Source: an uncultured Candidatus Saccharibacteria bacterium
GTDB taxonomy: Bacteria > Patescibacteriota > Minisyncoccia > Ryanbacterales > HO2-45-13
DNA length: 41,532 bases
Direction: 5' to 3'
NCBI GenBank assembly: GCA_964360995.1
Contig: CAYHYZ010000004.1
Location: 1-41,532 of the forward strand
Part shown: positions 10,991 to 31,479 of the stretch, piece by piece
Layout of the letters: the number at the start of each line of letters is the position of its first letter
How positions within the stretch are numbered: position 1 is the stretch's first letter
Notes under the pieces: model-generated
The model's input: the letters and a program-made list of their open reading frames with translations, nothing else
Database searches by the model: none
Told to the model about the DNA's origin: nothing
Translations under genes and position numbers: made by a program

Positions 10991-11992
10991 ATGGGCATCT
11001 TCATTGTCACCCAATCAATTGACGAGAAGGATTCGGTGCTATCTTTTTTTCTCGATTGGGTGAATGAATTCGCGCGACATACAAACGTCATTGTCGTTGC
11101 GAATAAAGTCGGCTCACATCATCTTCCAAAACATGTGCAAGTATTCTCACTCGGAGGCGAACAAAACTCTTGGCGTATTACAAAGGTGATGCGCTTACAA
11201 TATCTGTTTTTAAGACACCGGAGGGATATTTCACGCATTTTTTTTCATATGTGCCCAGAATATGTTGTCTCTCTCCACATTCTTCCAAAAATACTGCGTA
11301 AGCGATCCATCTTATGGTATGTCCACAAAAGAATTTCAATCTATCTACGAGCTGCACACCTCCTCGTCAATAGGATAGTGACTGCAACAGAATCCTCATG
11401 CAACCTTTCCTCAAGAAAAATCTTGGTTTGTGGCCACGGCATCAATACCGAACGCTTCTCCCCAGGCACGCTACCAAAAACAAACACACTGGAAATTGTA
11501 TTAGTCGGAAGAATAAGTCCAGTAAAACGATATGAACTACTACTTCCAGTGGCTGTCGCACTCCGATCTAAAAATAGACATTTCCATATGCGTATTGCGG
11601 GTCCAATAGCCGCTCAGGATGTCGATTACTATAATAATTTGCAGCAGACAATCAAAAACGATCATCTGTCAGAATACATTGAATTCGTGGGGGTCATCCC
11701 TCATGAAAAACTGCCTATGTTTTATCATTCGTCGCATGCATTAATCAGCTTTACCCCTACAGGCAGCTTCGACAAGGTGATTTTGGAAGCCATGTCATCT
11801 GGCCTACATGTGTACTGTACGAATGTAAGCCTTGAGGGAATACTGAACGAAGGATATATAAAGGAAGGAACCACAAACACACTTGCACAGTTATTGGCGG
11901 AAGTCCCACTGGAGCATAATTATCGAAACCGAAACTATATTGTACAGTACCACAATTTGCATGAACTCATTAAGCGATTACTAAGCGCGTAG
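10991..11992 (+). CDS. Glycosyltransferase, GT4-like (GT-B fold)
   Basis: The 333-aa protein starts 1 nt after the preceding stop. Its C-terminal half has the GT-B donor-binding pattern (..LVGRISPVKRYE.., ..GSFDKVILEAMSSG..). Confidence 0.75.
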   Translation: MGIFIVTQSIDEKDSVLSFFLDWVNEFARHTNVIVVANKVGSHHLPKHVQVFSLGGEQNSWRITKVMRLQYLFLRHRRDISRIFFHMCPEYVVSLHILPKILRKRSILWYVHKRISIYLRAAHLLVNRIVTATESSCNLSSRKILVCGHGINTERFSPGTLPKTNTLEIVLVGRISPVKRYELLLPVAVALRSKNRHFHMRIAGPIAAQDVDYYNNLQQTIKNDHLSEYIEFVGVIPHEKLPMFYHSSHALISFTPTGSFDKVILEAMSSGLHVYCTNVSLEGILNEGYIKEGTTNTLAQLLAEVPLEHNYRNRNYIVQYHNLHELIKRLLSA

Positions 11993-11993
11993 C

Positions 11994-13805
11994 ATGTGCG
12001 CCATCAACGGTTTCACATTTGAAAACAAGAACCTTATAGACGCGATGAATACCTGTACGCGTCATCGGGGTCCTGACGCCACATGCACGTGGATTTCTCA
12101 TGACATTTCATTAGGACATAATCGTCTCAAAATTATTGATTTACGCGATGACGCAAATCAGCCCCTCACAAGCAGCGATGGCCGGTACGTGATTGTCTTC
12201 AATGGCGAAATATACAATTTTAAGGAGCTCCGGAGGGAACTCAATTATCCATTTGCAACTGAATCGGATACAGAGGTGTTGCTCGCAGGATTCATCACGT
12301 GGGGAGAAAAAGTTGTATCGAAGCTCAACGGGATATTTGCGTTCGCGGTTTTCGACACATTTGAACGCGCTCTCTTTCTCGCGCGAGATCACAATGGTAT
12401 TAAGCCGCTGTATTACTTTCATAAGGATAATACATTGATCTTTGCATCAGAAATAAAAGCTATCTTAGTGCACCCCGCGGTATCAAGGCAACTCGATCAC
12501 ATTGCCCTATCTCATCATTTGTTGCTGCAATATACACCAGAACCCATGACGCTCTTTAAAGATATCAAAAAGTTTCCCGCAGCACACTTTGCATGGTTTC
12601 AAAATGAACTACTACATTTCACGAAATACTGGTCCCCGACCATACCAAAAAACTTTGATCGATTGGATCTGCCGCGCGTACTCGATTGTATTCACACTGC
12701 AGTTAAAGCGGAGCTGGTCAGTGACCGTCCGGTCGGTCTTTATCTTTCCGGAGGCATTGACTCTAGCACTATTCTCCATTTTGCCCGCCCGCATATTCGT
12801 GAACTCAACACATTTTCCATACGATTTGATCTTTCAGAATCTGAACAACAAGAGAAATTCAATGTTGACGCGGACATCGCGCTACGTCTATCCAAGCACT
12901 ATGAAACCATGCATCATGAACTGCTTATAGACAGTCGGCAGGTAGTGTCAGAAATCGCGCACGCACTCCTGCACCTAGAGGAGCCGATCGCGAATGCAAC
13001 GATCATTCCAATGTTTCTACTCTCCCGTTTTGCGAAAAACCGAGTGGCGGTCGCGCTCTCTGGCGAGGGTGGGGACGAACTGTTTGGCGGCTATGAAAGA
13101 TACCGATTGAGTCGCATCGCAAATATTGTCGGGAGTATGCCCCATATACTAAGTCAACGGATCGCAAAATTAGTTAACTCAAAATTACTATTTCCCCCGG
13201 GTGCGGAACGCTACGCGGCACTAATGATGCCGGGACGGATGCATATGGGAGATATATTTCGATTGGATATTGATGAGCGTACCGCGTCAGCTTGGATAAA
13301 CGAGCGCTTTGCCACAGTACCAGATCAAGATTTTGAACGGCAGATGATGGAAGTCGACAGACAAACGTGGCTTACTGATGAAGCGCTGTTGCGCTCAGAC
13401 AAAATGAGTATGGCTCACGGGCTTGAAATGCGTGTGCCTCTTTTAGAGCGCTCAGTGATTAATATGGCGAGAAGTTTTCCTTCAACATATCACGTAGGTT
13501 TATTTCAAACAAAAAAGTTGCTGAGAAAAGAACTCTTCGGAGTATTGCCAAAATATGTTCTCAAGCAGCCAAAACGCGGATGGTTCTCCCCATCTGCAAA
13601 ATGGATGCGACACCCGGAATTAAAGAAGATGATGTCAGAAACCTTTACGCAGTCGTATTACGCAGAAACCTCGACTCTTATCGACTTTGAGCGCTTACAA
13701 CAAATGCACCGATTGCACGCCGGGGGTTCAGCGTACTTTGCCAATGAATTATGGGCTGTATTCGTTTTTCAAATATGGGCAAGAACATTTCAAATACACT
13801 TATGA
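11994..13805 (+). CDS. Asparagine synthase (glutamine-hydrolysing) family amidotransferase, AsnB-like
   Basis: It has the MCAINGF N-terminal nucleophile Cys2, the Ntn glutaminase domain and the PP-loop YLSGGIDSSTIL. The segment ..ALSGEGGDELFGGY.. is also present. Confidence 0.9.
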   Translation: MCAINGFTFENKNLIDAMNTCTRHRGPDATCTWISHDISLGHNRLKIIDLRDDANQPLTSSDGRYVIVFNGEIYNFKELRRELNYPFATESDTEVLLAGFITWGEKVVSKLNGIFAFAVFDTFERALFLARDHNGIKPLYYFHKDNTLIFASEIKAILVHPAVSRQLDHIALSHHLLLQYTPEPMTLFKDIKKFPAAHFAWFQNELLHFTKYWSPTIPKNFDRLDLPRVLDCIHTAVKAELVSDRPVGLYLSGGIDSSTILHFARPHIRELNTFSIRFDLSESEQQEKFNVDADIALRLSKHYETMHHELLIDSRQVVSEIAHALLHLEEPIANATIIPMFLLSRFAKNRVAVALSGEGGDELFGGYERYRLSRIANIVGSMPHILSQRIAKLVNSKLLFPPGAERYAALMMPGRMHMGDIFRLDIDERTASAWINERFATVPDQDFERQMMEVDRQTWLTDEALLRSDKMSMAHGLEMRVPLLERSVINMARSFPSTYHVGLFQTKKLLRKELFGVLPKYVLKQPKRGWFSPSAKWMRHPELKKMMSETFTQSYYAETSTLIDFERLQQMHRLHAGGSAYFANELWAVFVFQIWARTFQIHL

Positions 13806-14977
13806 AAAGAATTCTTATTTGCACTTCTGATTTTTCCTTCCGAGAACGGGGCGCGGAAGAAGCGGATCGCACGTCTGGAATTCTTCAACTCAAGAATTTC
13901 GGATACGAGTTAACGGTGTATGCAAAAACTCACGCGCCACTACAGGCGCAAAGAGAGACCGTTGAGAGGGCACACAGTATGGGCATTAAGCTCGTGTATT
14001 TCCCCTACCGAAAAAAGAGCATTCTTAATCGTATCAACCCGCGGTGGCTGGATGGAGCAAGCCTGGAATATCGAGACCCGGGTTTGCAAGTTGCAATAAA
14101 ACATAAGATAGAGAGTTGGCATCCCGATGTCGTGTGGTTGGAACCGAGTTTTCTTTGGCCGCTCGCACGGACGGTGAGGCGCCTAGGTGTGCCCATTATC
14201 ATGCGCTCGGTTAATTTTGAATCACAGCACTACTTACAAGAGGCAGGTATAGGGCCGTTTACATTGTTGAAGGCGGCATCAAAACTTCTCAATGAATACA
14301 CCGCCGCGCACTCCTGTGACGTGTTATTTGCGATCTCTCCGGATGATCGAGATAAATACAAAAAATTCGGTGCAAAATACTGTGCGGTCCTCCCCCTACG
14401 AAAACTACCGGACTTTCTCAAGTTTGAACATATTCCGAAGGAAACAAAGATACTGCACGTCGCTTTCGCCGGCTCTTCCTATAATGTGCGGCACAATTTG
14501 GCCGCTGCAAGAATGATCATTGAAGAAATTGCACCGACCGTAAACCAATTAATGCCCGGCGTGTTTGTCTTTCATATTTTTGGCGCCAAGCTTCCTGCTT
14601 ATTTACAACGCGAATGCTTGGATAATGTTATCTACGAATCTTACGTGCCGAACCTCGATCGTTTTTATCATGAAATTGACATCGCACTCGCACCGAAATT
14701 GTATGGTGGCGGCATGCAGCAGAAAGTATTTGAACCTATTGTGCGCGGAATTCCGACAATTACCTCAAAAAATGCTCTTGTGGGATATCCGATGCGCCCA
14801 TCAGAAGAGGTGCTACTAGCACATTCACCAAAGGAATATGCGGATCGACTCATTGATCTCGCTGATGTTACACTCAGAAAACAAATATCAGCCGCCGCGC
14901 AGAAGAGTGCGCGCAATCTTTTTTCCCAAGAAATATTAAATCAAATAATTGTTCAAGGACTTAGTCACATTGCCTGA
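13802..14977 (+). CDS. Glycosyltransferase (GT-B, GT4-like)
   Basis: The track ORF begins inside asnB. ATG 13802 forms an ATGA overlap with the asnB stop (MKRILICTSDF..). The C-terminal ..GGGMQQKVFEPIVRGIPTITS.. resembles the GT-B E-x7-E region. Confidence 0.7.
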   Translation: MKRILICTSDFSFRERGAEEADRTSGILQLKNFGYELTVYAKTHAPLQAQRETVERAHSMGIKLVYFPYRKKSILNRINPRWLDGASLEYRDPGLQVAIKHKIESWHPDVVWLEPSFLWPLARTVRRLGVPIIMRSVNFESQHYLQEAGIGPFTLLKAASKLLNEYTAAHSCDVLFAISPDDRDKYKKFGAKYCAVLPLRKLPDFLKFEHIPKETKILHVAFAGSSYNVRHNLAAARMIIEEIAPTVNQLMPGVFVFHIFGAKLPAYLQRECLDNVIYESYVPNLDRFYHEIDIALAPKLYGGGMQQKVFEPIVRGIPTITSKNALVGYPMRPSEEVLLAHSPKEYADRLIDLADVTLRKQISAAAQKSARNLFSQEILNQIIVQGLSHIA

Positions 14978-14980
14978 TTA

Positions 14981-16015
14981 ATGAAAAATCTTTACGCACC
15001 ACGAATTCTCGGGAGATCGTTGCGCCATCTACCATTTTTTTACCCTCACTGGGGCATCCTCAGTAAGCCAAAGCGATTATTTGCCGACACTGCGGCAACA
15101 GTATTTTTCGAGACAAAATTATTTAATCTGGTTGAAAATCCCGCAACGGCCGAATATATCATCATCCCCTATGATTTTTTTCTGATTGAGAGTGAGCGAG
15201 AATATTTGCAAAACGTTGTCGCGGTTTCCGAGGCGCATGGAAAGCAGATCCTCATTTTTGATTTTAGTGATTTTGACAAACCAATTCATGTGCCTAACGC
15301 AAATATTTTCCGCACTTCGCTATACCGGTCAAAACGAATGCCACATGAACACCCAATACCTCCCATCATTTTACCCTTACCCAAAGAACAACGATGTATC
15401 AGGAGCAAATCTTCAATACCTACCATCGGATTTTGCGGCTGGGCAGCACGCGAATCAGCATTAAGAACTCTCCGCGATTCTCTCCATCTCACTTTGACTC
15501 GCACACTCGATATCATTTTTCATACACAACGTACGGCTCACGTGCGCGGTGTAGCAATTCGCCAGGAGGCGCTACGCATCCTCGCTTTGGACGAGAGGGT
15601 AAATACAAATTTTATTGTGCGCACGACGTATTCTGGTCATGCGGATACCATTCAGCTTGATGCGATGCAAGCAAGAATGCAATATGTAGAAAATATGCGC
15701 AACTGTGATTTTTCTCTGTGTGTCAAAGGTGACGGGAACTATTCAAATAGATTTTATGAAGCGCTCAGTCTGTCCCGTCTCCCCCTTCTCGTCGACACAG
15801 ATACGATCCTACCCCTCGCAGAAGAAATCAATTACGATGAGTTTGTACTCACTGTTTCTATCCAAAAGATAAATGACCTGCCCGGAGCCACTGCCCAATG
15901 GTGGAACAATCTTACCCCGGCCTCATATCAGGAAAAGCAGGAATCTGCCTTTCAAATGTTCAACAGATTTCTCCGAGCAGATAAATATTTTACAAGACTT
16001 TTTAATCAACTATGA
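14981..16015 (+). CDS. Exostosin-family (GT47-like) glycosyltransferase
   Basis: The segment ..NCDFSLCVKGDGNYSNRFYEALSLSRLPLLVDTDTILPLAEEINYDEFVLTV.. is the characteristic exostosin-domain core. Confidence 0.7.
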   Translation: MKNLYAPRILGRSLRHLPFFYPHWGILSKPKRLFADTAATVFFETKLFNLVENPATAEYIIIPYDFFLIESEREYLQNVVAVSEAHGKQILIFDFSDFDKPIHVPNANIFRTSLYRSKRMPHEHPIPPIILPLPKEQRCIRSKSSIPTIGFCGWAARESALRTLRDSLHLTLTRTLDIIFHTQRTAHVRGVAIRQEALRILALDERVNTNFIVRTTYSGHADTIQLDAMQARMQYVENMRNCDFSLCVKGDGNYSNRFYEALSLSRLPLLVDTDTILPLAEEINYDEFVLTVSIQKINDLPGATAQWWNNLTPASYQEKQESAFQMFNRFLRADKYFTRLFNQL

Positions 16016-16116
16016 AAGTATTGTTTCTTTTTTCTGGGTCCAGGAACGTGAGTCCCGATTCGGCACCGAATGAAATACCTAATACACAATTTTATGGTAT
16101 CAGAAATAGCATATAA
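16012..16116 (+). pseudogene. Remnant of a GT4 glycosyltransferase: first ~30 codons only, then a stop
   Basis: My translation reads MKVLFLFSGSRNVSPDSAPNEIPNTQFYGIRNSI*. It keeps the ATGA overlap with the exostosin stop. It aligns with the N-terminus of the intact downstream GT, MNILYIFSGTRKDKTRGRIHVDYPDTQLYGQN (shared FSG.R and P.TQ.YG). Confidence 0.7.
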
Positions 16117-16282
16117 AGATATTATGATGAGAATTTCTTATACGCAGATTGACATGGCTCCTGGGGTAGTCCAGAGTTGGTGGAATAATCTTTCGGAATC
16201 ATCTTATCACGCGACGCGGAAGGCAGTATGGGAAGAATGTAATACGCGTCTGCGTGCGGACATATTTTTTCCAGTATTCTAG
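16100..16282 (+). pseudogene. Remnant of the C-terminal ~60 codons of a second exostosin-family gene (inside track ORF 16070..16282)
   Basis: ..SEIAYKDIMMRISYTQIDMAPGVVQSWWNNLSESSYHATRKAVWEECNTRLRADIFFPVF* aligns with the end of the intact gene. That end reads ..EEINYDEFVLTVSIQKINDLPGATAQWWNNLTPASYQEKQESAFQMFNRFLRADKYFTRLF. There is no upstream catalytic part. Confidence 0.7.
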
Positions 16283-16289
16283 AATCACT

Positions 16290-17348
16290 ATGAATATTTT
16301 ATATATTTTTTCAGGAACCAGAAAGGACAAAACGCGTGGAAGAATTCACGTAGACTACCCCGACACACAACTATATGGCCAGAATCATTTAGTGAAATTT
16401 GGTATGAATGCGGAGTATAGAGAATTTAAAGACCAATACCCAATTATCGGTTTTTTTTCAAAAATCATCGGATTTCGCGGCAGACACTCCTTGATGTTTT
16501 TCTTAGCACGCCATTATGATGTCGTTTTTGGGATTTCCGTTTTGTACATGCTTATTTGGAAAAAATTTATCCGAACTGAAACGAAGTTTATCATTTTTAA
16601 TTCTGTTCTCAGTCGATTACTTAATGTGCATAAGCAGAGTTCTATAAAATTTAAAATACTCGTATGGATTCTCAGAGAGGTTGACGGTATTGTGTTCTTA
16701 GCACAGATTGATTTGAAAAATGTAGCCTCACGTCTTCCATTTTTAAAGGAGAAATTATTTATTGTTCATATGGGTGTTGATAAAGACTACTATAAATTTA
16801 TCTGCCATGGAAGGGAAGATTTTTTACTTTCCGTAGGGCGAGACGATGCTCGTGATTATAAAACTGTAATCGACGTTGCAAAAAAAATGCCTATGGAAAA
16901 ATTCCATCTTGTGTGCCTTCCACGTAATATACAACACATCCAAGATATACCGCCAAACGTTCATATTCATGTAAATATATCAATAAACGAATTGCAAGAT
17001 TTTTATGGAAAAGCAAAGGCGCTCCTTTTGATCACCCACAAAGATACATATAGTGAGGGTTCGGACTCCTCCGGTCCAACCGTTCTTCTTGAGGCGATGG
17101 CATCGGGGCTACCAATCATCGCGAGCAAAAAAGAATATCTCAATGATTATGTCGAGCATGAAAAAGATGTACTACTCGTTGATTTCTATGACAGCGATGC
17201 TATTGTGAATGGCATTCGTACAATATCCAAAGGTGACATGGGACTAAACATGGCGAAGAATGCGCGACTAAAAGTCGATACATCATTGAACACCGAAGAG
17301 ATGGCTCATAAACTCGCACGAGTATTTAAAATAATCCATGAAAAATAA
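16290..17348 (+). CDS. Glycosyltransferase, GT4-like
   Basis: The start is taken at ATG 16290 (MNILYIFSG..), just after the remnant stop. The C-terminal ..EGSDSSGPTVLLEAMASGLPIIASK.. is a GT-B signature. Confidence 0.8.
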   Translation: MNILYIFSGTRKDKTRGRIHVDYPDTQLYGQNHLVKFGMNAEYREFKDQYPIIGFFSKIIGFRGRHSLMFFLARHYDVVFGISVLYMLIWKKFIRTETKFIIFNSVLSRLLNVHKQSSIKFKILVWILREVDGIVFLAQIDLKNVASRLPFLKEKLFIVHMGVDKDYYKFICHGREDFLLSVGRDDARDYKTVIDVAKKMPMEKFHLVCLPRNIQHIQDIPPNVHIHVNISINELQDFYGKAKALLLITHKDTYSEGSDSSGPTVLLEAMASGLPIIASKKEYLNDYVEHEKDVLLVDFYDSDAIVNGIRTISKGDMGLNMAKNARLKVDTSLNTEEMAHKLARVFKIIHEK

Positions 17349-18363: not shown

Positions 18364-19232
18364 TTTCGTTTATTGAAAAAATACTGAAGGATAGCCCGGG
18401 CATTTTACCTATTTCAACTACTGATCGACTAGGATTTTTAAAATATAGTACAGCAATTTCCGGAAAAGGAGTTGGGAATAAGGTCATTTTTTTTGTTTTT
18501 ACTGACAGAAACATTATTCCGGTGGCAATCGTTAAAACTGTTAGGTCGTATCGAGATGCCGAGGTAATACGGCGCTCGTATGGCGCTTTACAGATGTTAA
18601 ATAAGCTCACTAAATATTCATCGTTCTCTGCGATGTTTCCACAAGCAATTCTGGTTTATGACGATGGCCACATCATTTTTAACGTAGAAACAATGTGCAT
18701 TGGTAATAAGGTCAACAGCGAGCGAGATATGGAGAAGATTATAGAAGCATATTTTTCGTTTTCTAAGTATATTGCAATGCGTACTTCTGATAATATCGTG
18801 TTGGACATACACTACGGCGTACAGTTAATAAAGGAACTTCAGGGTCCTAGGGAAACAATCGATGGAATTATTAAGTATTTTACTGATCTGTGGGGCAATG
18901 TTTCACTCCAATTACCGCGTATCCCGCAACATGGTGACCTGACTACCGATAATGTCCTTATTGACGGAGATAAGATAATGTTTATTGATTGTGATACGTT
19001 CGGCATGATCAATATTCCTGGCTTTGATGTATTTCACTTAGTGGCGAGAAAACAAAATAATAATTGGCGCAATGTACTTGATGCCTATTACGATCAAGTA
19101 AATATTCAGTGCACTTTCAGAGAAAAACTATTGATTATGTATCTTCTGCACGAGATACACATAAAAAAAGATTATATTCTTTTTCAGAAAAGTCTGGAAA
19201 CTATTATTAGTGAGTTTGCGGCTTTGATATAA
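18360..19232 (+). CDS. APH/choline-kinase-like phosphotransferase (protein-kinase-like fold)
   Basis: The catalytic loop is PQHGDLTTDNVLIDGDKIMFIDCDTFG (HGD....N plus the metal-binding D). The start forms an ATGA overlap with the preceding gene. Confidence 0.7.
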   Translation: MISFIEKILKDSPGILPISTTDRLGFLKYSTAISGKGVGNKVIFFVFTDRNIIPVAIVKTVRSYRDAEVIRRSYGALQMLNKLTKYSSFSAMFPQAILVYDDGHIIFNVETMCIGNKVNSERDMEKIIEAYFSFSKYIAMRTSDNIVLDIHYGVQLIKELQGPRETIDGIIKYFTDLWGNVSLQLPRIPQHGDLTTDNVLIDGDKIMFIDCDTFGMINIPGFDVFHLVARKQNNNWRNVLDAYYDQVNIQCTFREKLLIMYLLHEIHIKKDYILFQKSLETIISEFAALI

Positions 19233-19253
19233 TTATCTACTTTCCTGCGTATT

Positions 19254-20450
19254 ATGACCATTCTTCATATATCAAGAATGAACTTTCTTTCCGACAAAGC
19301 ACATGTATATACAACCACAAAAACATGTGAGGCATTAGCGGAGCAAACTGACACTCAAGTTATTTTACTTAGTTCCGACAACAGTCTTGTCGGTGAATCT
19401 GCTCTACAGAGCTTTTTTCGAAAGCACAACGTGAAAAAGAATTTCGAAATTATTTCAGTATCGTCATACGGAAACATATTTAGGGGAAGTAGTATCCGCC
19501 TCGTCAATTGGTTCGAGACAATTGCTATAAATATTTCTATTTTGAGATACATTATTCTTCATAGAAATACATTCGATATCTTATATGTTCGCGACTGTAC
19601 ATTATTCATGCCGATTTTGGCTTGCAAATATATATTGAAGAAACCCATTTTTATCGAGCTTCATGCTGTTCTCCACAAAAAGCATGGGCAATTTATGAAT
19701 AATTATTTTTCGAAAATTTCAGACGGGCTCATTGCGATTAGTTTTGGTCTTCGCGAGTATTACAAACACATGAATCCAAATATCATTGTTGCCTTTTGCG
19801 CTGCTGCGGAACCAGAGCGCTTCGCGCGCATTATTAATAGCAAAGAATTCCTGCGAGAAGAATTGAAACTGCCAAGGGAAAGAGTCATTCTTATGTATGC
19901 TGGAAATCTTTATAAAACCGGCAACAATGACTCTTACGGGCTTGAGGATATCGTAGAAGCGATGGTATATGTGAATGATTCAACACTGTTTATTGGATTA
20001 GGAAAGAGAGGAAATGAAACGAAAGAACTTGAAGATTTGGCAACACACCTTCGAGTGGATAAAAAAATTCTGTTTCTCCCTTGGGTTCCAAAGCATATGG
20101 TCTATCGCTATTGGAAAGCCGCTGATGTTCTTATGCTCCCATCATCCGGTGCTCAAATCGGAAATTCTCCTACAAAAATGTTTGAATATCTCTCTTCAGA
20201 ACGGGTCATCATAGCAGCAAGAACGAAAGCGATTGAAGAAGTATTACATCATGAAAAAAATGCATTGCTAGTTTCTGATTTCAAGAACCCCAGAGAATGG
20301 GCGGCAGCAATCAATCGTGTGCTTGGCGACCACCAGCTTCGCGACACGCTTACCAAGGCAGCCCTCCAGGATAGCCGTAAATATTCTTGGAATGACCGAG
20401 GATATCATATTCATGAATTTATTAAACAAACAATTGCAACAAAATCATGA
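19254..20450 (+). CDS. Glycosyltransferase, GT4-like
   Basis: The 398-aa protein begins MTILHISRMNF... The C-terminal ..DVLMLPSSGAQIGNSPTKMFEYLSSERVIIAA.. is a GT-B donor-site pattern. Confidence 0.75.
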   Translation: MTILHISRMNFLSDKAHVYTTTKTCEALAEQTDTQVILLSSDNSLVGESALQSFFRKHNVKKNFEIISVSSYGNIFRGSSIRLVNWFETIAINISILRYIILHRNTFDILYVRDCTLFMPILACKYILKKPIFIELHAVLHKKHGQFMNNYFSKISDGLIAISFGLREYYKHMNPNIIVAFCAAAEPERFARIINSKEFLREELKLPRERVILMYAGNLYKTGNNDSYGLEDIVEAMVYVNDSTLFIGLGKRGNETKELEDLATHLRVDKKILFLPWVPKHMVYRYWKAADVLMLPSSGAQIGNSPTKMFEYLSSERVIIAARTKAIEEVLHHEKNALLVSDFKNPREWAAAINRVLGDHQLRDTLTKAALQDSRKYSWNDRGYHIHEFIKQTIATKS

Positions 20451-21379
20451 CACTAAGGCACATCATATATTACCTAATATATTGGAGTGGCTTTAATGAT
20501 ATCTGTAGCCTATTTCTCAAAAAAAAAGTTTTCGTTGTAATGTACCATAGTATTTGCTCTCCAAAAAATTCCGAGGAATTTAAAAACTATCTCTATGAAC
20601 ATATTTCAATTGAGGAAGATCTCTTCGAGCAGCAGATCCTCTACCTCAAAAAACGAGGACATACATTTATTTCATTTAAGGATCTTGCTACCGCCGACAT
20701 TAGAAATATTTATAAACCGACCATTATTTATTTTGATGATGGATTCAAAAACTTACTAACGAATGCGGCTCCAATTTTACATAAATATGGCATACCCGCA
20801 ACCATTTTTCTTATTACTGGGATTTTGGATCACACGCACATGCTTTGGACAATACAATACAAGCATGCGTCACATGAAGGTGGTATCGCAAAAGACGAGC
20901 AAAATTATCAAATTGAAAATATAAAAAATAAAACTGATCGAAAACGAATTGAGGTGATGCGTCAATTTCCGATTGATAAGCACTCCCCCCTTTTTCATAT
21001 TTTTTTATCATGGAATGATGTTGCTCTTCTTGTTAAAAACAATTTCGAACTCGGTTCCCATAGTGTTTCGCACGCGCGTCTTACTGAGTGCAGTCCACAG
21101 GAACTCCAGTTTGAAATTGTGCATTCGAAGCGGCGTATTGAGGAAGAGACTGGTCAAAAAGTCGATTCTTTTTCTTTTCCCCACAGCAGGGGAAGTGAAC
21201 AACTTATTGGTGAGTTAGGTAAATATGGCTATCGGTTTGGAGTATCGGCTGGAAAAGGACTCAATAATATGCCAATCTCAAATCACATGATGCACTATTT
21301 AAAGAATATATCGCCCAAACCAGGAGAATCATTGTGGATGTTTGCATTACGAATTTACTTTTTAAACATCAAAACGTGA
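20447..21379 (+). CDS. Polysaccharide deacetylase (CE4, NodB homology domain)
   Basis: Motif 1 is IIYFDDGF. The segments IPATIFLITG and motif 2 GSHSVSHARL are also present. The start forms an ATGA overlap with the upstream GT. Confidence 0.8.
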   Translation: MTLRHIIYYLIYWSGFNDICSLFLKKKVFVVMYHSICSPKNSEEFKNYLYEHISIEEDLFEQQILYLKKRGHTFISFKDLATADIRNIYKPTIIYFDDGFKNLLTNAAPILHKYGIPATIFLITGILDHTHMLWTIQYKHASHEGGIAKDEQNYQIENIKNKTDRKRIEVMRQFPIDKHSPLFHIFLSWNDVALLVKNNFELGSHSVSHARLTECSPQELQFEIVHSKRRIEEETGQKVDSFSFPHSRGSEQLIGELGKYGYRFGVSAGKGLNNMPISNHMMHYLKNISPKPGESLWMFALRIYFLNIKT

Positions 21380-22143: not shown

Positions 22144-23270
22144 AATTGCTCATCATTACAAATTATCTTGGAAACCGAGGCGGATTAGGAAGATACTCTT
22201 TTGAGGTCGTCAAAGCGCTTGAATCCTACGCTATTGATATGAAGGTAATTTCTGAAGCAAGCACTCCTACCGTCCCTTTTGAACACAATATTCTGAGGCC
22301 AGTTTTTCGACAAAAACCAGTAAGGCGTATCTGGAATTTTATTTTGAATATCTACACTGTCCGACGTTTCGCCAAAAATGTAGACATCATACACGCCCAC
22401 GATGGTTGGCCATATGGGGTATATGGCTGGTTGGCGGTCCTTGGAACATCAAAAAAACTTTTTATTACAGGCATTGGCACATACACTCTAGCCCCTCTGC
22501 AGGAAACACTAATGGGTATGTTGCTGTGCAGGTCGTATCGGAGAGCGGAGGTCATTCTTTGCATTAGTGATTATCTTCGGAGTCAATTAAAGGAACTTTG
22601 TCCTGAAGTCGTTACTACCACGGTTTTGATGGGACCTCCGTCGTTACCGGTACCGAACGATGAACAACTGCGTAACTTTGGGTTAACGTATAAAATTTCT
22701 TGGCGATACCCGATCATACTCACCGTAGGTGACATTAAACATCGAAAGGGGCAATTGAATACATTACTTGCACTTAAAAGTCTGCAAAATATATATCCTC
22801 ATTTTCTATATATTATTATTGGTTCAGATAATGATCAGACCTACGTTAGGAAAATTATTGATTTTGTCGAGATGCATCATCTTCAAAATAATATCCTCAT
22901 GATTTCAAACAATTACGACGATCTCACGCTCGCATGTTTTTATCAGTCATGTCATCTTTTTGCCCTTTCTTCAAACAACGACGGATTGCACATCGAAGGG
23001 TTTGGGCTCGCACTTTTAGAGGCCGCGCAATTTGGTAAGCCGGTTGTTGGTAGTAGAAATTGCGGTATTGAAAGTGCGCTAAAAGACGGGTACAATGGGC
23101 TTCTCACTGCTCAAGGTAATTCAACTGATATCGCCAACAAAATCAATGATATCCTGGGACCAAACTATGATACCTATTCCCTCCACGCTCGGGATTTCTA
23201 TTCCCGTTTCTCTTGGAAACGAACGCTTGAAATATATATTCAGTATTTCACAAATAGCGCTAAGAAATGA
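22140..23270 (+). CDS. Glycosyltransferase, GT4-like
   Basis: The track start at 22101 is TTG. GTG 22140 gives a GTGA overlap with the upstream stop and a typical GT4 N-terminus (V)KLLIITNYLGNRGGLGRY. The C-terminus reads ..EGFGLALLEAAQFGKPVVGS... Confidence 0.8.
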   Translation: MKLLIITNYLGNRGGLGRYSFEVVKALESYAIDMKVISEASTPTVPFEHNILRPVFRQKPVRRIWNFILNIYTVRRFAKNVDIIHAHDGWPYGVYGWLAVLGTSKKLFITGIGTYTLAPLQETLMGMLLCRSYRRAEVILCISDYLRSQLKELCPEVVTTTVLMGPPSLPVPNDEQLRNFGLTYKISWRYPIILTVGDIKHRKGQLNTLLALKSLQNIYPHFLYIIIGSDNDQTYVRKIIDFVEMHHLQNNILMISNNYDDLTLACFYQSCHLFALSSNNDGLHIEGFGLALLEAAQFGKPVVGSRNCGIESALKDGYNGLLTAQGNSTDIANKINDILGPNYDTYSLHARDFYSRFSWKRTLEIYIQYFTNSAKK

Positions 23271-23276
23271 AATCGC

Positions 23277-24467
23277 ATGTTAACTATTTTTGGTAATTTA
23301 CGAATAAACTCTGGGGAGCGCCTTCAACACATGAAGGACTCTCTTCAGTCATTTAAGGACATTAGTGATAACTGGGTCATTAATATTCGTGGATCATTTC
23401 GTGAAGAGGCCATATTATTTTTGAAACAGCACCTTGGCGATAAATTGTCGTTGTGTGAGTTCCTGGACGATGGGAGGGGGTGGATCGAGAACGCCCTCGA
23501 CATGATGCCAAATGTAAAGCATGACTATATTCTGTTGTGGATTGAAGACCACATCAACGTTTCTCCGACCGAAATATACACTGAAATCATTCAAGACATG
23601 AAAACTGCCCATGCAGATTACCTGCTATATTCTTGGTGGATGTTTGGAAAATCTCGCGAGGCATTTTCTGTAGTTCCAATGGAAAAACTACAGCATATTG
23701 ATGTTATTAAACTGGATGAGCAGTTGTGGAAGAAAATAATGGGCCATGGGCACCCATATTATCTTCTTTCCCTTCTTGGGATATATCGAAAATCGTTTTT
23801 GATACGAATGATGAAAAACGATCGAAGAAAGCTGCCGAGACAAACTATCCGATATATTTTTATGACGATGGCGTTATTGGACAAATTAGGAATCCACTTC
23901 GACCACACAAAAGCATTCCAATCTTTGCATCGCCTCACTGGTTACCGACTACGTCGATTCAGCAAAGAGGCTCCATTTGATCTCGAAAAATCTTCCGACC
24001 GATTTGACATGTTGCCATTTACCATGGCACTCTCCCGCCAAGAGCTTTTTGCATGTATAGACGACAATCTCGGTATGCCAGGATATAGTTTAGAATCTCG
24101 TGGTTTATACAAAGAAAAAAACCTTGAAGGACCTAGAAAAATCAACGAGCGCATAGAGAAAGCTTGGGGATATGAGGAAATACTTGAAACTAATTCTCAC
24201 TATACCGTCAAGCGCTTATTTATGAAAAAAAGTTTCCAATGCTCGTTTCAGTATCATAAAAAAATGACGGTGACAGTTGTAGGACTCTCCGGCGAACTAC
24301 ATGTCATTCTCGAAAATGGTGTCCGCGTCCTACATCAGGGAGATGTTATTACCATTCCTCCACTCATGAAACATCGCATGTTTGCTCCTACTGAAAATGC
24401 TCTGTATCTTGAACTTTCTACCTCGGAAATAGATGCCGTTGTACAATTCAACGATGATCACAGCTAA
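23277..24467 (+). CDS. Two-domain protein: N-terminal ~290 aa of unknown family plus a C-terminal PMI-type (type II mannose-6-phosphate-isomerase-like) cupin
   Basis: The cupin part (about 24159-24467) reads KAWGYEEILETNSHYTVKRLF..SFQYHKK..HVILENG..GDVITIPPLMKHRMFA..LELSTSEID. It is paralogous to the stand-alone cupin at 28369. I recognise no family in the N-domain (..DYILLWIEDHINV..). Confidence 0.6.
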   Translation: MLTIFGNLRINSGERLQHMKDSLQSFKDISDNWVINIRGSFREEAILFLKQHLGDKLSLCEFLDDGRGWIENALDMMPNVKHDYILLWIEDHINVSPTEIYTEIIQDMKTAHADYLLYSWWMFGKSREAFSVVPMEKLQHIDVIKLDEQLWKKIMGHGHPYYLLSLLGIYRKSFLIRMMKNDRRKLPRQTIRYIFMTMALLDKLGIHFDHTKAFQSLHRLTGYRLRRFSKEAPFDLEKSSDRFDMLPFTMALSRQELFACIDDNLGMPGYSLESRGLYKEKNLEGPRKINERIEKAWGYEEILETNSHYTVKRLFMKKSFQCSFQYHKKMTVTVVGLSGELHVILENGVRVLHQGDVITIPPLMKHRMFAPTENALYLELSTSEIDAVVQFNDDHS

Positions 24468-25494: not shown

Positions 25495-25971
25495 ATGAGC
25501 AAACCGATCAAAAACTTCATTCTCGATGTTGATGGCGTGCTTACCACCGGACAATTTCTTTATACAATAGATGGTAAGTTCGCCAAGGTATTCGGACCAC
25601 ACGACAATGATGGAATTAAATTAATTATCCCCCACCTTAATGTGTTCGCTATTTCTGCAGATAAACGTGGATTTTTAATCACAAAAAAAAGGGTCGCTGA
25701 TGATATGGGCCTGGAACTCAAATTGGTCCCCGAAGCAGAAAGACTTTCCTGGCTGCGACAAAATTTCGATCTTTCTGAATCCGTATATATGGGTGATGGA
25801 ATTCACGATGCTATTATTTTTGATTTTGTGGCATATAGCATCGCTCCGTCAAGTGCATTCTATACCGCACGTGCGAAAGCAGCATTTGTTACCAACGCAA
25901 AAGCTGGCGAGGGAGCCGTGGCTGAGGCGTGTCTTCATCTTCTAGAAAAATTCTTTACCCAACATAAATGA
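25495..25971 (+). CDS. HAD-IIIA phosphatase, KdsC/YrbI-like (sugar-acid/sugar phosphate phosphatase)
   Basis: Motif I is FILDVDGVLTTG. The segments SADKRG and YMGDGIHD (motif IV GD...D) are present. The 158-aa size and the tail ..AKAGEGAVAEACLHLL fit the KdsC family. Confidence 0.75.
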   Translation: MSKPIKNFILDVDGVLTTGQFLYTIDGKFAKVFGPHDNDGIKLIIPHLNVFAISADKRGFLITKKRVADDMGLELKLVPEAERLSWLRQNFDLSESVYMGDGIHDAIIFDFVAYSIAPSSAFYTARAKAAFVTNAKAGEGAVAEACLHLLEKFFTQHK

Positions 25972-27557
25972 AGTATACGAGTTACAAAGTATGTATTTTG
26001 GCTGCGAGGGTCGAACATTCAATGCAAAAGCTGACACATAGCATCAATAAAGCAATTCTTCCGGTAAATTTTAAAGCTGTTATATCACATATTATTGAAA
26101 AGTTTCCTGCAGAAATTGAACTGGTGGTTGCTTTGGGCCACAAAAAAGATACCATAGTGGATTACCTCACTCTTGCACACCCAAATCGAAAATTTACTTT
26201 TGTTGAAATTAATAATATTGCCGAACCAAGAACTAATAATGGTTGCGCGCTACTGCAATGCAGGCCCAATCTCCAATGCCCATTTATTTTTTGCACTACA
26301 GATACTTTCGTACTGGAAGAGGTTCCCGCGCCAGAGTATAACTGGCTTGGAGTCGGACCGGAAGAGAGCTCCGAACTGTTCAGTACTGTGAAAATACGGG
26401 ACAAACGTATCTATCAGATTGACAACGAGACAAAAGATAATAATGAATTCGGCTTCATCGGCTTAGCTGGCATTAAAGATTATGAAAAGTTCTTTGAAGG
26501 ATTGTCGAAAAGCATAGAAGACACAAAAGGCGCGATCCATATATTTAATGGACTAAGACATTTAATCGAATACGATCTCTCCCCAATTGCGTTTACTTGG
26601 CATAATACACACACCTTAGAAGCCTATACCAAAACAAATAAGCTCTTCAGTGGAGAAAATAAATTTAATTTCAGTAAGGGTAGTGGCGACGAATTCTTGT
26701 ACTTTGTTGGAAACAAAGTTATTAAATTTTTTGCTGATAAAACCATTACGGAGAATCGACATGAGCGGGCCCAAAAATATTTAAATGATCTTTGCCCAAA
26801 AATTGATCCTCGAAAAGGTAATTTTTATTCTTACAATAAAATAGAAGGACAAGTGTTTTATGATGTACTCGATCGCCAAATGGTTATTGATTTCTTAGAA
26901 TGGGCAAGAACTCATCTATGGAAACAAATAAACCTTACCGAAGAAGCAAGGCGGGAATACGCCGAGGCTTGCGAAGAATTTTATGTAAACAAAACCAAGA
27001 AACGCATACAGAAATTTTACGATAAAACAGGTATCACAGATACCACAACTTTTATCAACGGTATATCGGTACCACCACTTTATGAACTTTTTAAAAAAAT
27101 AAATTGGCTCCATGTAAAGGACGGAACCCCGAGTAACTTCCATGGTGATCTTCAGTTCGACAACATTCTTTTTATAAAAGACGCCGTGGACAAAAAAAAT
27201 AAGTTTCTTCTTCTTGATTGGAGACAGGATTTTGCGGGGCTAGTCAGTCACGGGGACATGTATTATGACTTGGCAAAGCTCTATGGGGGCACGCTAGTCT
27301 CTTATAAGCTTATTAAAGAAGCGATGTTTTCTTTTGATATGTCGGATAATATTGTCCACTATAACTATTTCATTAAAAATGATCTTAACGAAGCGAGAGA
27401 AGAATTCGAATATTTTTTAAAAAAGCACGACTTCGACATAAAAAAAGTGAAAATTATTACTGCGCTTATTTTCCTTAATATGTCGCCCTTACATGAAGAA
27501 CCATTCGATAAACTTCTTTACTTCATGGGGAGAAGTATGCTGAGTAGACTTATATGA
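25968..27557 (+). CDS. Fusion protein: N-terminal nucleotidyltransferase-like domain (degenerate G-loop) plus C-terminal APH/choline-kinase-like kinase domain
   Basis: The N-terminal ~235 aa are paralogous to the NTase at 28745 (shared LQCPF[IV]F, NW[LI]G, IGL.GI.DY). The C-terminal domain has the catalytic loop FHGDLQFDNILF..FLLLDWRQDF. The start forms an ATGA overlap with the upstream gene. Confidence 0.7.
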   Translation: MKYTSYKVCILAARVEHSMQKLTHSINKAILPVNFKAVISHIIEKFPAEIELVVALGHKKDTIVDYLTLAHPNRKFTFVEINNIAEPRTNNGCALLQCRPNLQCPFIFCTTDTFVLEEVPAPEYNWLGVGPEESSELFSTVKIRDKRIYQIDNETKDNNEFGFIGLAGIKDYEKFFEGLSKSIEDTKGAIHIFNGLRHLIEYDLSPIAFTWHNTHTLEAYTKTNKLFSGENKFNFSKGSGDEFLYFVGNKVIKFFADKTITENRHERAQKYLNDLCPKIDPRKGNFYSYNKIEGQVFYDVLDRQMVIDFLEWARTHLWKQINLTEEARREYAEACEEFYVNKTKKRIQKFYDKTGITDTTTFINGISVPPLYELFKKINWLHVKDGTPSNFHGDLQFDNILFIKDAVDKKNKFLLLDWRQDFAGLVSHGDMYYDLAKLYGGTLVSYKLIKEAMFSFDMSDNIVHYNYFIKNDLNEAREEFEYFLKKHDFDIKKVKIITALIFLNMSPLHEEPFDKLLYFMGRSMLSRLI

Positions 27558-28368: not shown

Positions 28369-28758
28369 ATGAAACATAAAACTCCAAAAACGGTCATAAA
28401 GCCTTGGGGCAAAGAAATTTGGCTAGAGCTCAATGATAAGTATTGTTATAAGCGAATCTACATCAATGCAGGCACTAAAACGAGCTATCAATACCACAAC
28501 CAAAAGTTGGAAACCAATTACATTATCGACGGCGAAGCTGAAGTGTGGCTTGAAAATGATCATGGCGTCGTAGAAAAACAAAAAATGAAAAAAGATGACT
28601 TCTTCAACGTCGCACCCTTAAAGAAACACCGCATTATTGCAATTACAGATATCATTCTTCAGGAAGTTTCAACTCCTGAAGTAGATGATGTAATTAGAAT
28701 TGAGGACGATACAAATCGTCCGGATGGTCGAATCAATAGTGAACATGGAACAGTATAA
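28369..28758 (+). CDS. Stand-alone PMI-type cupin (type II mannose-6-phosphate isomerase C-terminal-domain-like)
   Basis: The 129-aa protein reads KPWGKEIWLELNDKYCYKRIYINAGTKTSYQYHNQKLETNYIIDGEAEVWLEN..APLKKHRIIA..LQEVSTPEVDD. This matches the rPWG..vK.i.v.pG..lS.Q.H..R.E pattern of ManC-type cupins. Confidence 0.7.
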   Translation: MKHKTPKTVIKPWGKEIWLELNDKYCYKRIYINAGTKTSYQYHNQKLETNYIIDGEAEVWLENDHGVVEKQKMKKDDFFNVAPLKKHRIIAITDIILQEVSTPEVDDVIRIEDDTNRPDGRINSEHGTV

Positions 28759-29473
28759 GGTACTATTGCCAACCTCGGGCACTGGTTCGCGGCTCAAAGA
28801 AATAACTGCAAACACCAATAAAGCATTGCTGTCTCTTCATGGTAAGCCCACCATTACTTACATAATCGATTCCTATCCCCAAGAGGTAACTTTTGTCGTT
28901 ACGCTTGGTTATTTAGGCAACAGCGTAAAAACATTTCTTGAAACAAATTACCCCGATAGGCAATTTGAATTTGTGTGGGTTGATAAATATAAAGGTCCTG
29001 GAAGCAGCCTTGGGTACTCGATACTGAAAGCTCAAAAAGAGTTGCAATGCCCGTTTGTTTTTCATGCCTGCGATGGAATATTTATAGAAAAAATACCGCC
29101 ACCTGATCATAATTGGATTGGAGGATTTGTAGAAGATTGGGATAGAAGCATTCTTGCCCTTGCTGAATATCGCTCACATCGTATGAATGATGGAAACATT
29201 GTGTCATTTATCGAACGGGGAGTACCGGGTTTTGATTCACTTCATATAGGATTGGACGGTATTAGAGATTACAAACTCTGGTGGCAAGTACTTGAAGAAG
29301 TCGTTCACAACGACCCTCACAACACTCAAATATCCGACGTGCCAATCCTTGATTTAATGATGAAACGCGGTGCTAAATTTTCATGGATTCCTTTTAAAGT
29401 GTGGCTCGATATAGGAAATCTCCCAGGACTCACACGAGCAAAAGAATACTTATCTGAAAAAGAAATGATATGA
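28745..29473 (+). CDS. Sugar-phosphate nucleotidyltransferase (canonical G-loop)
   Basis: The start is taken at ATG 28745 (MEQYKVLLPTSGTGSRLKEITANTNKALLSL), a 14-nt overlap with the cupin gene. The G-x-G-x-R signature is intact. Nucleotide and sugar specificity cannot be called. Confidence 0.75.
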   Translation: MEQYKVLLPTSGTGSRLKEITANTNKALLSLHGKPTITYIIDSYPQEVTFVVTLGYLGNSVKTFLETNYPDRQFEFVWVDKYKGPGSSLGYSILKAQKELQCPFVFHACDGIFIEKIPPPDHNWIGGFVEDWDRSILALAEYRSHRMNDGNIVSFIERGVPGFDSLHIGLDGIRDYKLWWQVLEEVVHNDPHNTQISDVPILDLMMKRGAKFSWIPFKVWLDIGNLPGLTRAKEYLSEKEMI

Positions 29474-30618
29474 AACAATCTAACGACTGCACTATTCGGG
29501 ATAAAAGTTTGCTGAAAGAAACGGCAAAGCTTGAACATCTTTTTACTTTTAAAGATTTCCCCGTATTCATGGGCTGTGTCGACACACCTCAAAGCGAAGA
29601 TATTGTTGCAGATATGATTTGGGATATTTGCAAAGACACGGGCATCATTCAGCTGCGAGAATTACTTCCACTTGAAATACTCTATCTTGGACAACATAAC
29701 GATGGAATTGGAGTAATTTGGCATGGACTCTACAAGCAATTCGCAGAATTTATCTATCAACAATCCCCCGGTAAACATATACTTGAAATTGGTGGTGCGA
29801 ATGACGCCATTGCAAAGTATTTTTTGGAACGCGATGCTAGTGTATCATGGACCATTGTCGAACCACATCCAGATTTTGTGAGTGATCCGCGCATACGAGT
29901 TGTAAGATCATGGTTTGATGAAGATTTTTCAATTGACGAAGAAGTAGATACTATTATCCACTCGCATGTGTTTGAACATACGTATGACCCTGTCGCATTC
30001 CTTACACATATTAATCACTTTCTAAAACCTGGGAAAAGGCATATTTTTACTTTCCCGAATATGCTTCCGATGCTAGAGCATAAATTTACCAACTGTCTCA
30101 ATTTCGAACATACCGCTTTCCTCACCGAAGATATTATAGAATACCTACTAACAACCATTGGATTCGAAATTGTTGCTAAAGAATATTATGGTGATCCACA
30201 TAGTATTCTGTATTCAACAATTAAACGTCAGGCGCCAAGCGCTCCCCCATCATTACCAAATCACTACAAAGAATACAAAAAAATATTCATGGAATTTATT
30301 TCCTACCACAACAATATGGTGAGCGACCTTAATAATAAAATACACGCGGAAATACTACCGATCTATCTTTTCGGTGCGCATATTTTTTCACAGTATTTAA
30401 TTCAATTCGGACTTAAAACCAAAAAGATCGTCTCAATTCTTGATAATAGTCCGCAAAAAAACGGAAAACGCCTGTATGGTACGAATCTTTTGGTCGCTTC
30501 TCCAAAAATACTCAGAGATAAAGGACGAGTTATCGTTATTCTAAAAGCCGGTATCTATAACGAGGAGATTAAAAAAGACATCCTGGAGAATATAAACAGC
30601 GAGGTAGAGTTTTGGTAA
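29470..30618 (+). CDS. SAM-dependent methyltransferase of the NDP-sugar C-methyltransferase type (TylCIII-like, with C-methyltransferase C-terminal domain)
   Basis: The segments ..ICKDTGIIQLRELLPLEILY.., SAM motif ILEIGGANDAIAKYF and IHSHVFEHTYDP are present. The C-terminal Rossmann-like part is PIYLFGAHIFSQYLIQFG..ILDNSPQKNGKRLYGTN. The N-terminal four-Cys zinc site usual in this family is absent. Confidence 0.6.
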   Translation: MKQSNDCTIRDKSLLKETAKLEHLFTFKDFPVFMGCVDTPQSEDIVADMIWDICKDTGIIQLRELLPLEILYLGQHNDGIGVIWHGLYKQFAEFIYQQSPGKHILEIGGANDAIAKYFLERDASVSWTIVEPHPDFVSDPRIRVVRSWFDEDFSIDEEVDTIIHSHVFEHTYDPVAFLTHINHFLKPGKRHIFTFPNMLPMLEHKFTNCLNFEHTAFLTEDIIEYLLTTIGFEIVAKEYYGDPHSILYSTIKRQAPSAPPSLPNHYKEYKKIFMEFISYHNNMVSDLNNKIHAEILPIYLFGAHIFSQYLIQFGLKTKKIVSILDNSPQKNGKRLYGTNLLVASPKILRDKGRVIVILKAGIYNEEIKKDILENINSEVEFW

Positions 30619-30704
30619 AATGAAGTCCTTCATGCACTTGCTCGAAACATTTTCTCACGTTGGAGCGTGAACCAACATACGATCGTGAGGGATTTCCTAT
30701 ACGG

Positions 30705-30743
30705 AAGAAAAAATTGAGTGCGTTGCCGCTCGGCAACGCACTC
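30705..30743 (-). terminator. Strong rho-independent terminator between convergent operons (T-tract on the minus-strand side)
   Basis: The hairpin GAGTGCGTTGCC-gctc-GGCAACGCACTC (30716-30743) is a perfect 12-bp stem. On the minus-strand sense it is followed by AATTTTTT. It lies 28 nt beyond the stop of the 30771..31400 gene. Confidence 0.7.
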
Positions 30744-30770
30744 AAGATACTAAAACTCTTTTCCCGGGAA

Positions 30771-31400: not shown

Positions 31401-31433
31401 AAAACCTCCCAAGAACAAATGAACAACGTGCGC

Positions 31434-31462
31434 ATAGTAACAGACAGGTCCTGTTCTGTCAA
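31434..31462 (-). promoter_or_regulatory. Near-consensus sigma-70-like promoter for the 30771..31400 gene, with a palindrome in the spacer
   Basis: The minus-sense sequence is TTGACA, a 17-nt spacer, then TACTAT. The spacer contains ACAGG-n-CCTGT (31444-31454). The -10 element lies 33 nt upstream of the ATG. Confidence 0.5.
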
Positions 31463-31479
31463 TACTGCGCGAGGCGAAT

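Follow-up and report, generated by a model that had tools for sequence, protein, structure and literature searches.

What is the 274-nt interval that separates two intact glycosyltransferase genes in a surface-polysaccharide cluster of an uncultured groundwater bacterium, and how did it arise? The question concerns a stretch of 41,532 nt (contig CAYHYZ010000004.1 of assembly GCA_964360995.1; hereafter the window), in which an intact exostosin (GT47-like) gene, exoA (14981-16015, + strand; 344 aa; Pfam PF03016, E 1e-8; guanine-plus-cytosine (GC) content 0.44), is followed by GT4B (16290-17348, + strand; 352 aa; Pfam Glycos_transf_1), an intact gene for a GT4-family glycosyltransferase (GT). Two short open reading frames (ORFs) lie between them on the + strand: ORF 1 (16012-16116, 34 aa), whose ATG overlaps the exoA stop as ATGA, and ORF 2 (16094-16282; 62 aa, or 70 aa from an ATG at 16070), whose stop (16280-16282) stands 7 nt before the GT4B ATG at 16290. 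Our analysis suggests that this interval is very probably a recombination scar composed of two gene remnants and that it marks the left edge of a foreign surface-sugar cassette of ~7 kb.

The first remnant, stub 1 (16012-16098, + strand), corresponds to the first 29 codons of a resident GT4 gene, here called GT4A, as indicated by BLASTP, homologue alignment and a profile hidden Markov model (HMM). It begins MKVLFLFSGSRNVSPDSAPNEIPNTQFYG, and the ATGA at 16012-16015, formed by the exoA stop (TGA) and the stub 1 start (ATG), is the native coupled junction of a pair exoA-GT4A (pair A); an equal overlap in the same context (CACTATGAAA) is found in the related loci L008 and L094. BLASTP aligned stub 1 with the N-terminus of GT4B at 13 of 33 identical residues (E 2e-5), and residues 1-30 were matched in 99 of the 112 family homologues via the motif MKVLYxxSGxR...(Y/F)PDTQ(F/L)YG, where stub 1 has N instead of the near-invariant D of PDTQ(F/L)YG. 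Consistent with this, when the whole window was searched in six frames with a GT4-family profile HMM, stub 1 was matched over model positions 1-31 (E 7e-6). Beyond the join, the stub 1 frame continues for five unrelated codons (IRNSI) and ends with TAA at 16114-16116. With 29 codons left before an out-of-frame join, stub 1 lacks the two Rossmann-like domains of a functional GT4.

The second remnant, stub 2 (16100-16293, + strand; present ORF 16094-16282), comprises the last ~65 codons of a second exostosin gene, here called exoB. The ATG of its present ORF sits at the join, partly in stub 1 sequence. Stub 2 aligned with exoA residues 279-337 at 20 of 59 identical positions (34%, E 3e-13), it was in register with the C-terminal ~55 residues of ~30 exostosin family members, and a six-frame search with an exostosin HMM built from alignment A1 recovered it over model positions 280-336 with E 1e-10. 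Pfam recognises neither stub; the PF03016 match of exoA itself covers residues 223-300 and overlaps the region of stub 2 (from 279) by only ~20 residues. With ~65 of ~344 codons, frameshifted, stub 2 has no complete catalytic domain and is a remnant rather than a working enzyme. Taken together, these alignments show that one stub derives from a GT4 gene and the other from a second exostosin gene; the stubs themselves would be without function.

The ORF created at the scar (16070-16282 or 16094-16282) has been called as a gene in several assemblies and is stored as predicted proteins of 62 aa and 70 aa (P0163, P0255). An exhaustive HMMER search of 1.84 billion representatives for the parent of stub 2 returned the ORF itself, two repetitive proteins and the intact orthologue P0001 at 36%, and in the same search the only homologues of the 62-aa ORF were full-length exostosins. 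The 62/70-aa database protein is a pseudogene fragment. The gene from which stub 1 came was sought in the JGI metagenomes with a degenerate DNA pattern encoding VSPDSAPNEIPNTQFYG, which gave no matches.

How the second remnant originally met GT4B can be read from a -1 frameshift in a T6 run (16265-16270), which creates the premature TAG of stub 2. When one T is added to this run, the end of stub 2 changes from ...RLRADIFFPVF (stop) to ...RLRADIFFSSILESL (stop), the profile score rises from 38.1 to 42.2 bits and the alignment now reaches model position 342. In length, the corrected end equals those of exoA (...FLRADKYFTRLFNQL) and of the L094 exostosin (...LLRADQFLSHMFDSL), both of which it resembles, and its TGA overlaps the GT4B ATG as ATGA (16290-16293). 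The present 7-nt spacer thus came about only because the dead remnant suffered a frameshift. Immediately upstream of GT4B, the DNA (GAATCACTATGAA) also matches the corresponding junction in L094 (GATTCACTATGAA) and that of pair A (AATCAACTATGAA), so that the donor pair shares the junction sequence ...TCACTATGAA, and loci without an exostosin carry unrelated sequence before GT4. The closest relatives of stub 2, exoA (34%) and the L094 exostosin (37%), are the only two exostosins found directly upstream of this GT4 family. The corrected ATGA, the shared junction and the kinship of stub 2 together indicate that the donor carried the same coupled exostosin-GT4 pair.

Such a pair is not widespread. 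The idea that an exostosin followed by GT4 is a widely conserved pair was rejected, since only L007/L008/L009/L094, all from one organism, show it; elsewhere an exostosin was found directly before this GT4 family only in L007/L094, again with an ATGA overlap. The exostosin and GT4 are separated by 0.9 kb in L039 and by 3 kb in L053, and the regions fetched for the other ~78 loci contain no member of the GT4 family.

Profile alignments bracket the breakpoint, the GT4 match ending at 16098-16101 and the exostosin match starting at 16100. The join thus falls at 16098-16103, where codon 29/30 of GT4A meets about codon 282 of exoB out of frame, and since the stubs are in different frames no fusion protein is made. 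A repeat search revealed none involving 16000-16300 beyond chance-level short matches and none linking the two cassette boundaries; likewise, no transposase or integrase domains were present among the window proteins, and no insertion sequence fragment, recombinase or terminal repeats were seen near the join. The join is thus an illegitimate and not a homologous one. A preliminary description of this locus had already placed a GT4 stub in the ATGA-coupled position after the exostosin stop, with GT4 homology ending at ~16098, the 3' end of an exostosin paralogue in another frame from ~16100 and a breakpoint near 16096-16103. All of these claims agree with our results, the last now narrowed, and the pairwise alignments of the stubs with the intact genes that it proposed as a check were significant for both. 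Its estimate of ~40% identity between stub 2 and exoA was too high, as the measured value shows, and its statement that the stub ends 7 nt before GT4 is correct for the present ORF but not for the original spacing, which the 1-nt frameshift altered from an ancestral ATGA.

To see where the two sides of the join belong, we compared protein identities among seven loci (27-64% identity), using identity matrices and not formal, statistically supported trees. Apart from L094, six loci have the arrangement AsnB-GT ... GT4-methyltransferase-x-GT-deacetylase-hypothetical, L011 having the AsnB and GT order reversed. In L007/L094, a contig of 99.5 kb, the gene order equals that of the window from the Wzy-TPR gene to the SIS gene, there are no stubs, and the exostosin and GT4 genes overlap as ATGA. 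Mean identities were taken over two upstream genes, AsnB (asparagine-synthase-like) and GT391 (a GT of 391 aa), and over six genes of the cassette. The window is 53% identical to L094 upstream and 38% in the cassette; with L010-L012 the corresponding values are 39-42% and 57-59%. L010-L012 among themselves show 47-58% upstream and 57-61% in the cassette, and L094 against every other locus 38-44% and 38-40%. Two control pairs behave evenly: L095 and L096 share 81% and 80%, and L010 and L012 58% and 61%. In the upstream genes the window stands at 53% to L094 versus 39-43% to the other loci, and in the cassette it is as close to L010-L012 as these are to one another and thus falls within their group. 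Because only the window switches partners while L094 and the control pairs remain stable, the window is indicated as the recombinant.

Single genes tell the same story. For all seven genes between 16290 and 23270, L010-L012 are the closest of the compared loci (46-64%) and L094 the most distant (27-47%); GT4B itself is 60-62% identical to L010/L011/L012 and 41% to L094. In the database ranking, the L094 protein is the best match for GT391 (48%) and about the 97th of 112 for GT4B. The backbone genes beside the cluster are L094-like (Wzy-TPR 83%, Bac_transf 65%), AsnB is 57% identical to its L094 counterpart, and the gene at 23277 (23277-24467) is L094-like again, with 71% identity to L094 over its first 278 aa versus 42-45% to L010/L012, and 87% versus 61-65% over its first 40 aa. 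The right boundary lies approximately at 23150-23290, with no scar visible. The switches of affinity at the join and at 23277 thus delimit an imported segment of ~7.2 kb (16100 to ~23270, + strand), with a scar on the left and a clean gene boundary on the right, which contains the exoB remnant, GT4B, an S-adenosylmethionine (SAM) methyltransferase, an APH-like protein, a GT (398 aa), a deacetylase, a hypothetical protein (269 aa) and a GT4 (389 aa). The first gene of the imported cassette is GT4B; the resident part to its left, which is L094-like, ends with exoA.

Base composition is in broad agreement. GC falls from ~0.45 to 0.37, and the genes of the cassette have GC 0.36-0.40 versus 0.42-0.46 upstream. 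The maximum-likelihood change point lies at 15950, ~150 nt from the join, with a support interval that varies with the range analysed: 15816-16262, which takes in the join, or 15820-16073, which ends shortly before it. The preliminary description had called the join the exact junction of composition; a GC step is indeed nearby, but with the best fit at 15950 "exact" is too strong. Its proposal that two diverged exostosin-GT4 pairs recombined is supported by the L007/L094 pair, by the donor ATGA and junction sequence, by the relatives of stub 2 and by the affinity switch at the join, although the exchange extends beyond the pair to a seven-gene cassette.

These observations can be accommodated as follows. 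In a resident L094-type cluster, exoA and GT4A would have formed an ATGA-coupled pair upstream of genes for a methyltransferase, an APH-like protein, a GT, a deacetylase, a hypothetical protein and a GT4. DNA of another lineage, with a homologous module of L010-L012-like genes and its own ATGA-coupled exoB before GT4B, would then have replaced the resident genes. The right end of the exchange would lie near 23270, at or close to a gene boundary, and the left end would be an illegitimate, out-of-frame join of GT4A codon 29/30 to about exoB codon 282. Such a join would leave behind the start of GT4A and the end of exoB as stubs while keeping exactly one working copy of each enzyme, so that a hybrid glycan is expected, with resident enzymes acting in the early steps and imported ones in the later steps. 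That the transfer ran into the window lineage is suggested by the window being the only locus whose affinity differs between the upstream genes and the cassette. The events may have taken one step, by illegitimate recombination on DNA entry, or two, by tandem integration and then deletion; both would fit equally well. Since truncation the remnants have started to decay, as seen from the T6 frameshift, the change of D to N in PDTQFYG and the low identity of stub 2 to its family.

Could the join instead be an artefact or the product of a purely local event? An assembly chimera, in which two co-occurring strains or organisms were misjoined at 16096-16103, would explain why the join roughly coincides with a GC step, and in run X8 one low-depth contig stops at 16095 and another begins at 16099 (2.1x and 2.7x), precisely where the join lies. 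X8, however, is fragmented at 2-3x depth into contigs of 150-300 nt throughout, with 12 short contigs over a stretch of 6.5 kb, and for this reason its break at the join is likely a coincidence, though a second, minor allele may exist in that sample. The exact join sequence is present with 0 differences in Logan contigs of seven runs (X1-X7) from two studies (2021 groundwater, 2025), including 31.5 kb contigs at 24-28x depth in X2 and X3 and short independent contigs in X5, X6 and X7 (15682-16383, 15500-16439 and 15938-16236), and the independent ENA assembly Hain_H52 also spans it. Since identical contigs from all these sources cross the join, and the two sides share no sequence able to mislead a k-mer assembler, we regard a chimera as practically excluded. 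Comparison of whole loci with the window gave 0-4 substitutions in 4-12 kb, which indicates one population in which the scar is fixed. A further run, X11, a groundwater metagenome of another study, yielded a 267-nt contig over window positions 16352-16616 in GT4B with 14 substitutions in 265 nt (~95% identity), so that a related strain or species exists. A local tandem duplication, in which ~270 bp across the exoA 3' end and the GT4 5' end were copied in place and then decayed neutrally, would give the identical order of exostosin, GT4 stub, exostosin stub and GT4. Neutral decay would, however, strike all codon positions equally and litter the 62 codons with stops, whereas exoA and stub 2 are 58/59/32% identical at codon positions 1/2/3, much like the intact orthologues exoA and P0001 (54/56/26%). 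As the differences fall mainly at third positions, the divergence built up while both were functional genes, under purifying selection, and on this ground the duplication was rejected. In addition, the overall DNA identity is ~50% with no detectable DNA repeat, stub 2 has the consensus residue of the family at some positions where exoA does not (such as the R opposite exoA position 291), and both affinity and GC switch at the join. Overall, we consider this explanation very improbable.

Two further alternatives accept the remnants as such. In the one, nothing was transferred: old tandem paralogous modules suffered an internal deletion from GT4A codon 30 to exoB codon ~282, and the discordance with L094 reflects differential loss of paralogues or a replacement in L094. 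The scar alone proves only that two modules were joined, the centre of the cluster is divergent in every pairwise comparison (to L094, GT1 33% and exoA 39%), and GC stays low past the right boundary, all of which would suit such a history. Set against this, L094 is equidistant (38-44%) in both parts and the controls are stable, so that only the window moves, from 39-42% to 57-59% with L010-L012; the return of affinity to L094 at 23277 fits a two-ended replacement better than a one-ended deletion; and tandem modules occur in none of the eight compared loci. We therefore hold a history without transfer to be rather unlikely. In the other, the small ORFs (34 aa, 16012-16116; 62 aa, 16094-16282) are kept by selection, either as a relay of coupled translation from exoA to GT4B or as small proteins. 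They do form an unbroken chain, in which the first overlaps exoA as ATGA, the two overlap each other and the second stops 7 nt short of the GT4B ATG, no Shine-Dalgarno-like sequence was seen by eye before GT4B, and gene callers predict the 62/70-aa ORF. The T6 frameshift and the D to N change, however, suggest drift and not constraint, the 62-aa ORF has no homologue besides full-length exostosins, a search for RNA runs that cover the region found none, and no variation was seen in the population; we judge selection on the ORFs to be quite improbable. One may still speculate that the leftover ORF chain is tolerated, or kept, for preserving coupled translation into the imported genes.

Several points also weigh against an imported cassette as we have described it. 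Stub 2 is more divergent than any intact family member (mean identity to the family in this region 23.5%, versus 28.5-45% for every intact member), and part of this divergence may be decay. The evidence for a mosaic comes from the matrices for seven distant loci described above and not from supported trees. No GC step marks the right boundary, GC remaining at 0.38-0.41 to the end of the window, so the cassette cannot be outlined from composition alone. In L010-L012, to which the cassette is most closely related, the slot before GT4 contains no exostosin, which implies that the donor lineage is unsampled. Finally, no full-length parental allele of GT4A or exoB, of the unrearranged kind that the preliminary description had suggested seeking in related genomes or metagenome bins, was found in the collections searched (1.84 billion representatives; JGI metagenomes).

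The slot in which the scar lies, between the ~400-aa GT and GT4 (13802-16290 in the window; compared with L094, L010, L011, L012, L095, L096 and L097), varies among loci, and the flanking modules are conserved. In the six other loci it holds Methyltransf_21 (one or two copies), Methyltransf_23, NTP_transf_2 and a hypothetical gene, radical SAM and GtrA, or nothing, so that nearly every locus compared has a different gene set in this candidate hot spot. One might speculate that illegitimate cassette swapping at a fixed hot spot upstream of GT4 diversifies the glycan cluster, with the scar as its first captured intermediate, but we consider this doubtful. Six-frame HMM searches of 87 other loci (80 from GTDB Patescibacteria, the rest from metagenomes) revealed no exostosin or GT4 fragments comparable to the scar, and the positive control in the window worked.

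The scar lies within a long cluster whose sugar-modifying genes, all on the + strand, reach at least 30.6 kb. SecA, MurB and the Wzy-TPR gene stand to its left; the cluster then runs through Bac_transf (9604), GT1 (10991), AsnB (11994), GT391 (13802), exoA and GT4B to the SAM methyltransferase, the APH-like protein, the 398-aa GT, the polysaccharide deacetylase, the hypothetical protein and the 389-aa GT4, after which more sugar-modifying genes follow. The 50 exoA homologues share 27-42% identity with it, the best relative 42%. A database search with exoA did not return exoA itself, as P0257, a fragment of 132 aa, stands for its 90% cluster. Annotations place the relatives in Patescibacteria, Peregrinibacteria/Peribacteria and Paceibacterota, and the host is probably a groundwater bacterium of the Patescibacteria/candidate phyla radiation (CPR).

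Other parts of the cluster also show signs of mosaicism or rearrangement. GT1 (10991-11992) is 33% identical to its L094 counterpart, and its neighbours are 65% (Bac_transf) and 57% (AsnB) identical to theirs; GT1 may thus also have been replaced, as a single gene, in one lineage or the other. The 396-aa protein encoded at 23277-24467 may be chimeric: over residues 1-278 it shares 71% identity with the N-terminal portion of a 469-aa SIS-domain protein of L094, and the C-terminal ~115 residues are cupin/mannose-6-phosphate-isomerase-like and unrelated to the L094 C-terminus (6-11% in sliding windows), so that a second mosaic boundary may lie near 24110. Two ORFs, 25968-27557 (529 aa) and 28700-29473 (257 aa), match one 526-aa L094 protein (19057-20637), the former at 34% over its full length and the latter at 46% over 236 N-terminal residues; the pair resembles a full-length copy with a shorter paralogue, or with another remnant. 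Further right, a GC-rich island (30600-31500, GC 0.46-0.53) within a region of ~0.39 GC holds long overlapping ORFs on opposite strands (30771-31418, minus; 30861-31487, plus) with no Pfam match and no Rfam hit. Rfam and tRNA scans found nothing in the window, and promoter and terminator scans gave chance-level counts, the weak sites at 16245-16285 being no evidence.

Footprints of this type have precedents, and by its structure the scar appears to be the gene-remnant footprint of a cassette exchange, a phenomenon already known from O-antigen and capsule loci. In the capsule loci of Streptococcus pneumoniae (cps) and Klebsiella (K-locus), central serotype-specific genes with lower GC are swapped between conserved flanks, pseudogene fragments are common, and the exchange normally proceeds via homologous recombination in the conserved flanking genes. 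In contrast to such exchange in the flanks, the left end in the window is an illegitimate join within coding sequence. The group D2 O-antigen cluster of Salmonella enterica is a recombinant of groups D1 and E, with an H-repeat remnant at the junction as the thought mediator, and recombinant O-antigen clusters carry junction gene remnants (wzy remnants of groups B1/D1) and blocks of differing GC (PMC3715488). With the D2 cluster the window shares a hybrid structure, in which the 5' and 3' parts come from different clusters, and a non-functional remnant at the junction; with Salmonella O-antigen clusters in general it shares blocks that differ in GC and divergence, and remnants that degrade by later small lesions. 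It differs in that the genes are joined directly, with no repeat or mobile element found where D2 has its H-repeat, in that neither parental cluster is known whereas both are known in Salmonella, and in its host, an uncultured groundwater bacterium as opposed to an enterobacterium. In Escherichia coli, gene remnants make up 9 of the 68 anomalies listed across 178 serogroups in a review of O-antigen clusters, where anomalies are read as a recent genetic event (PMC7685785). Remnants of cluster genes can be read in the window, too, as the sign of a relatively recent event, although E. coli is a well-typed species with known glycan structures and the cluster described here is known from sequence alone.

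What, then, does the locus tell us about its host? To our knowledge, there is no genetics for uncultured bacteria of the Patescibacteria/CPR type, and cell-surface glycans are thought to be important for host attachment and phage escape. The scar reveals no new mechanism and no new kind of element. Rather, it would provide a footprint, resolved to the base pair, of how an uncultured groundwater bacterium exchanged a cassette of its surface-polysaccharide cluster horizontally, by what is an ordinary route for such clusters. It suggests that the glycan loci of such organisms evolve like O-antigen and capsule loci, and the variable slot identified here could be followed across populations.

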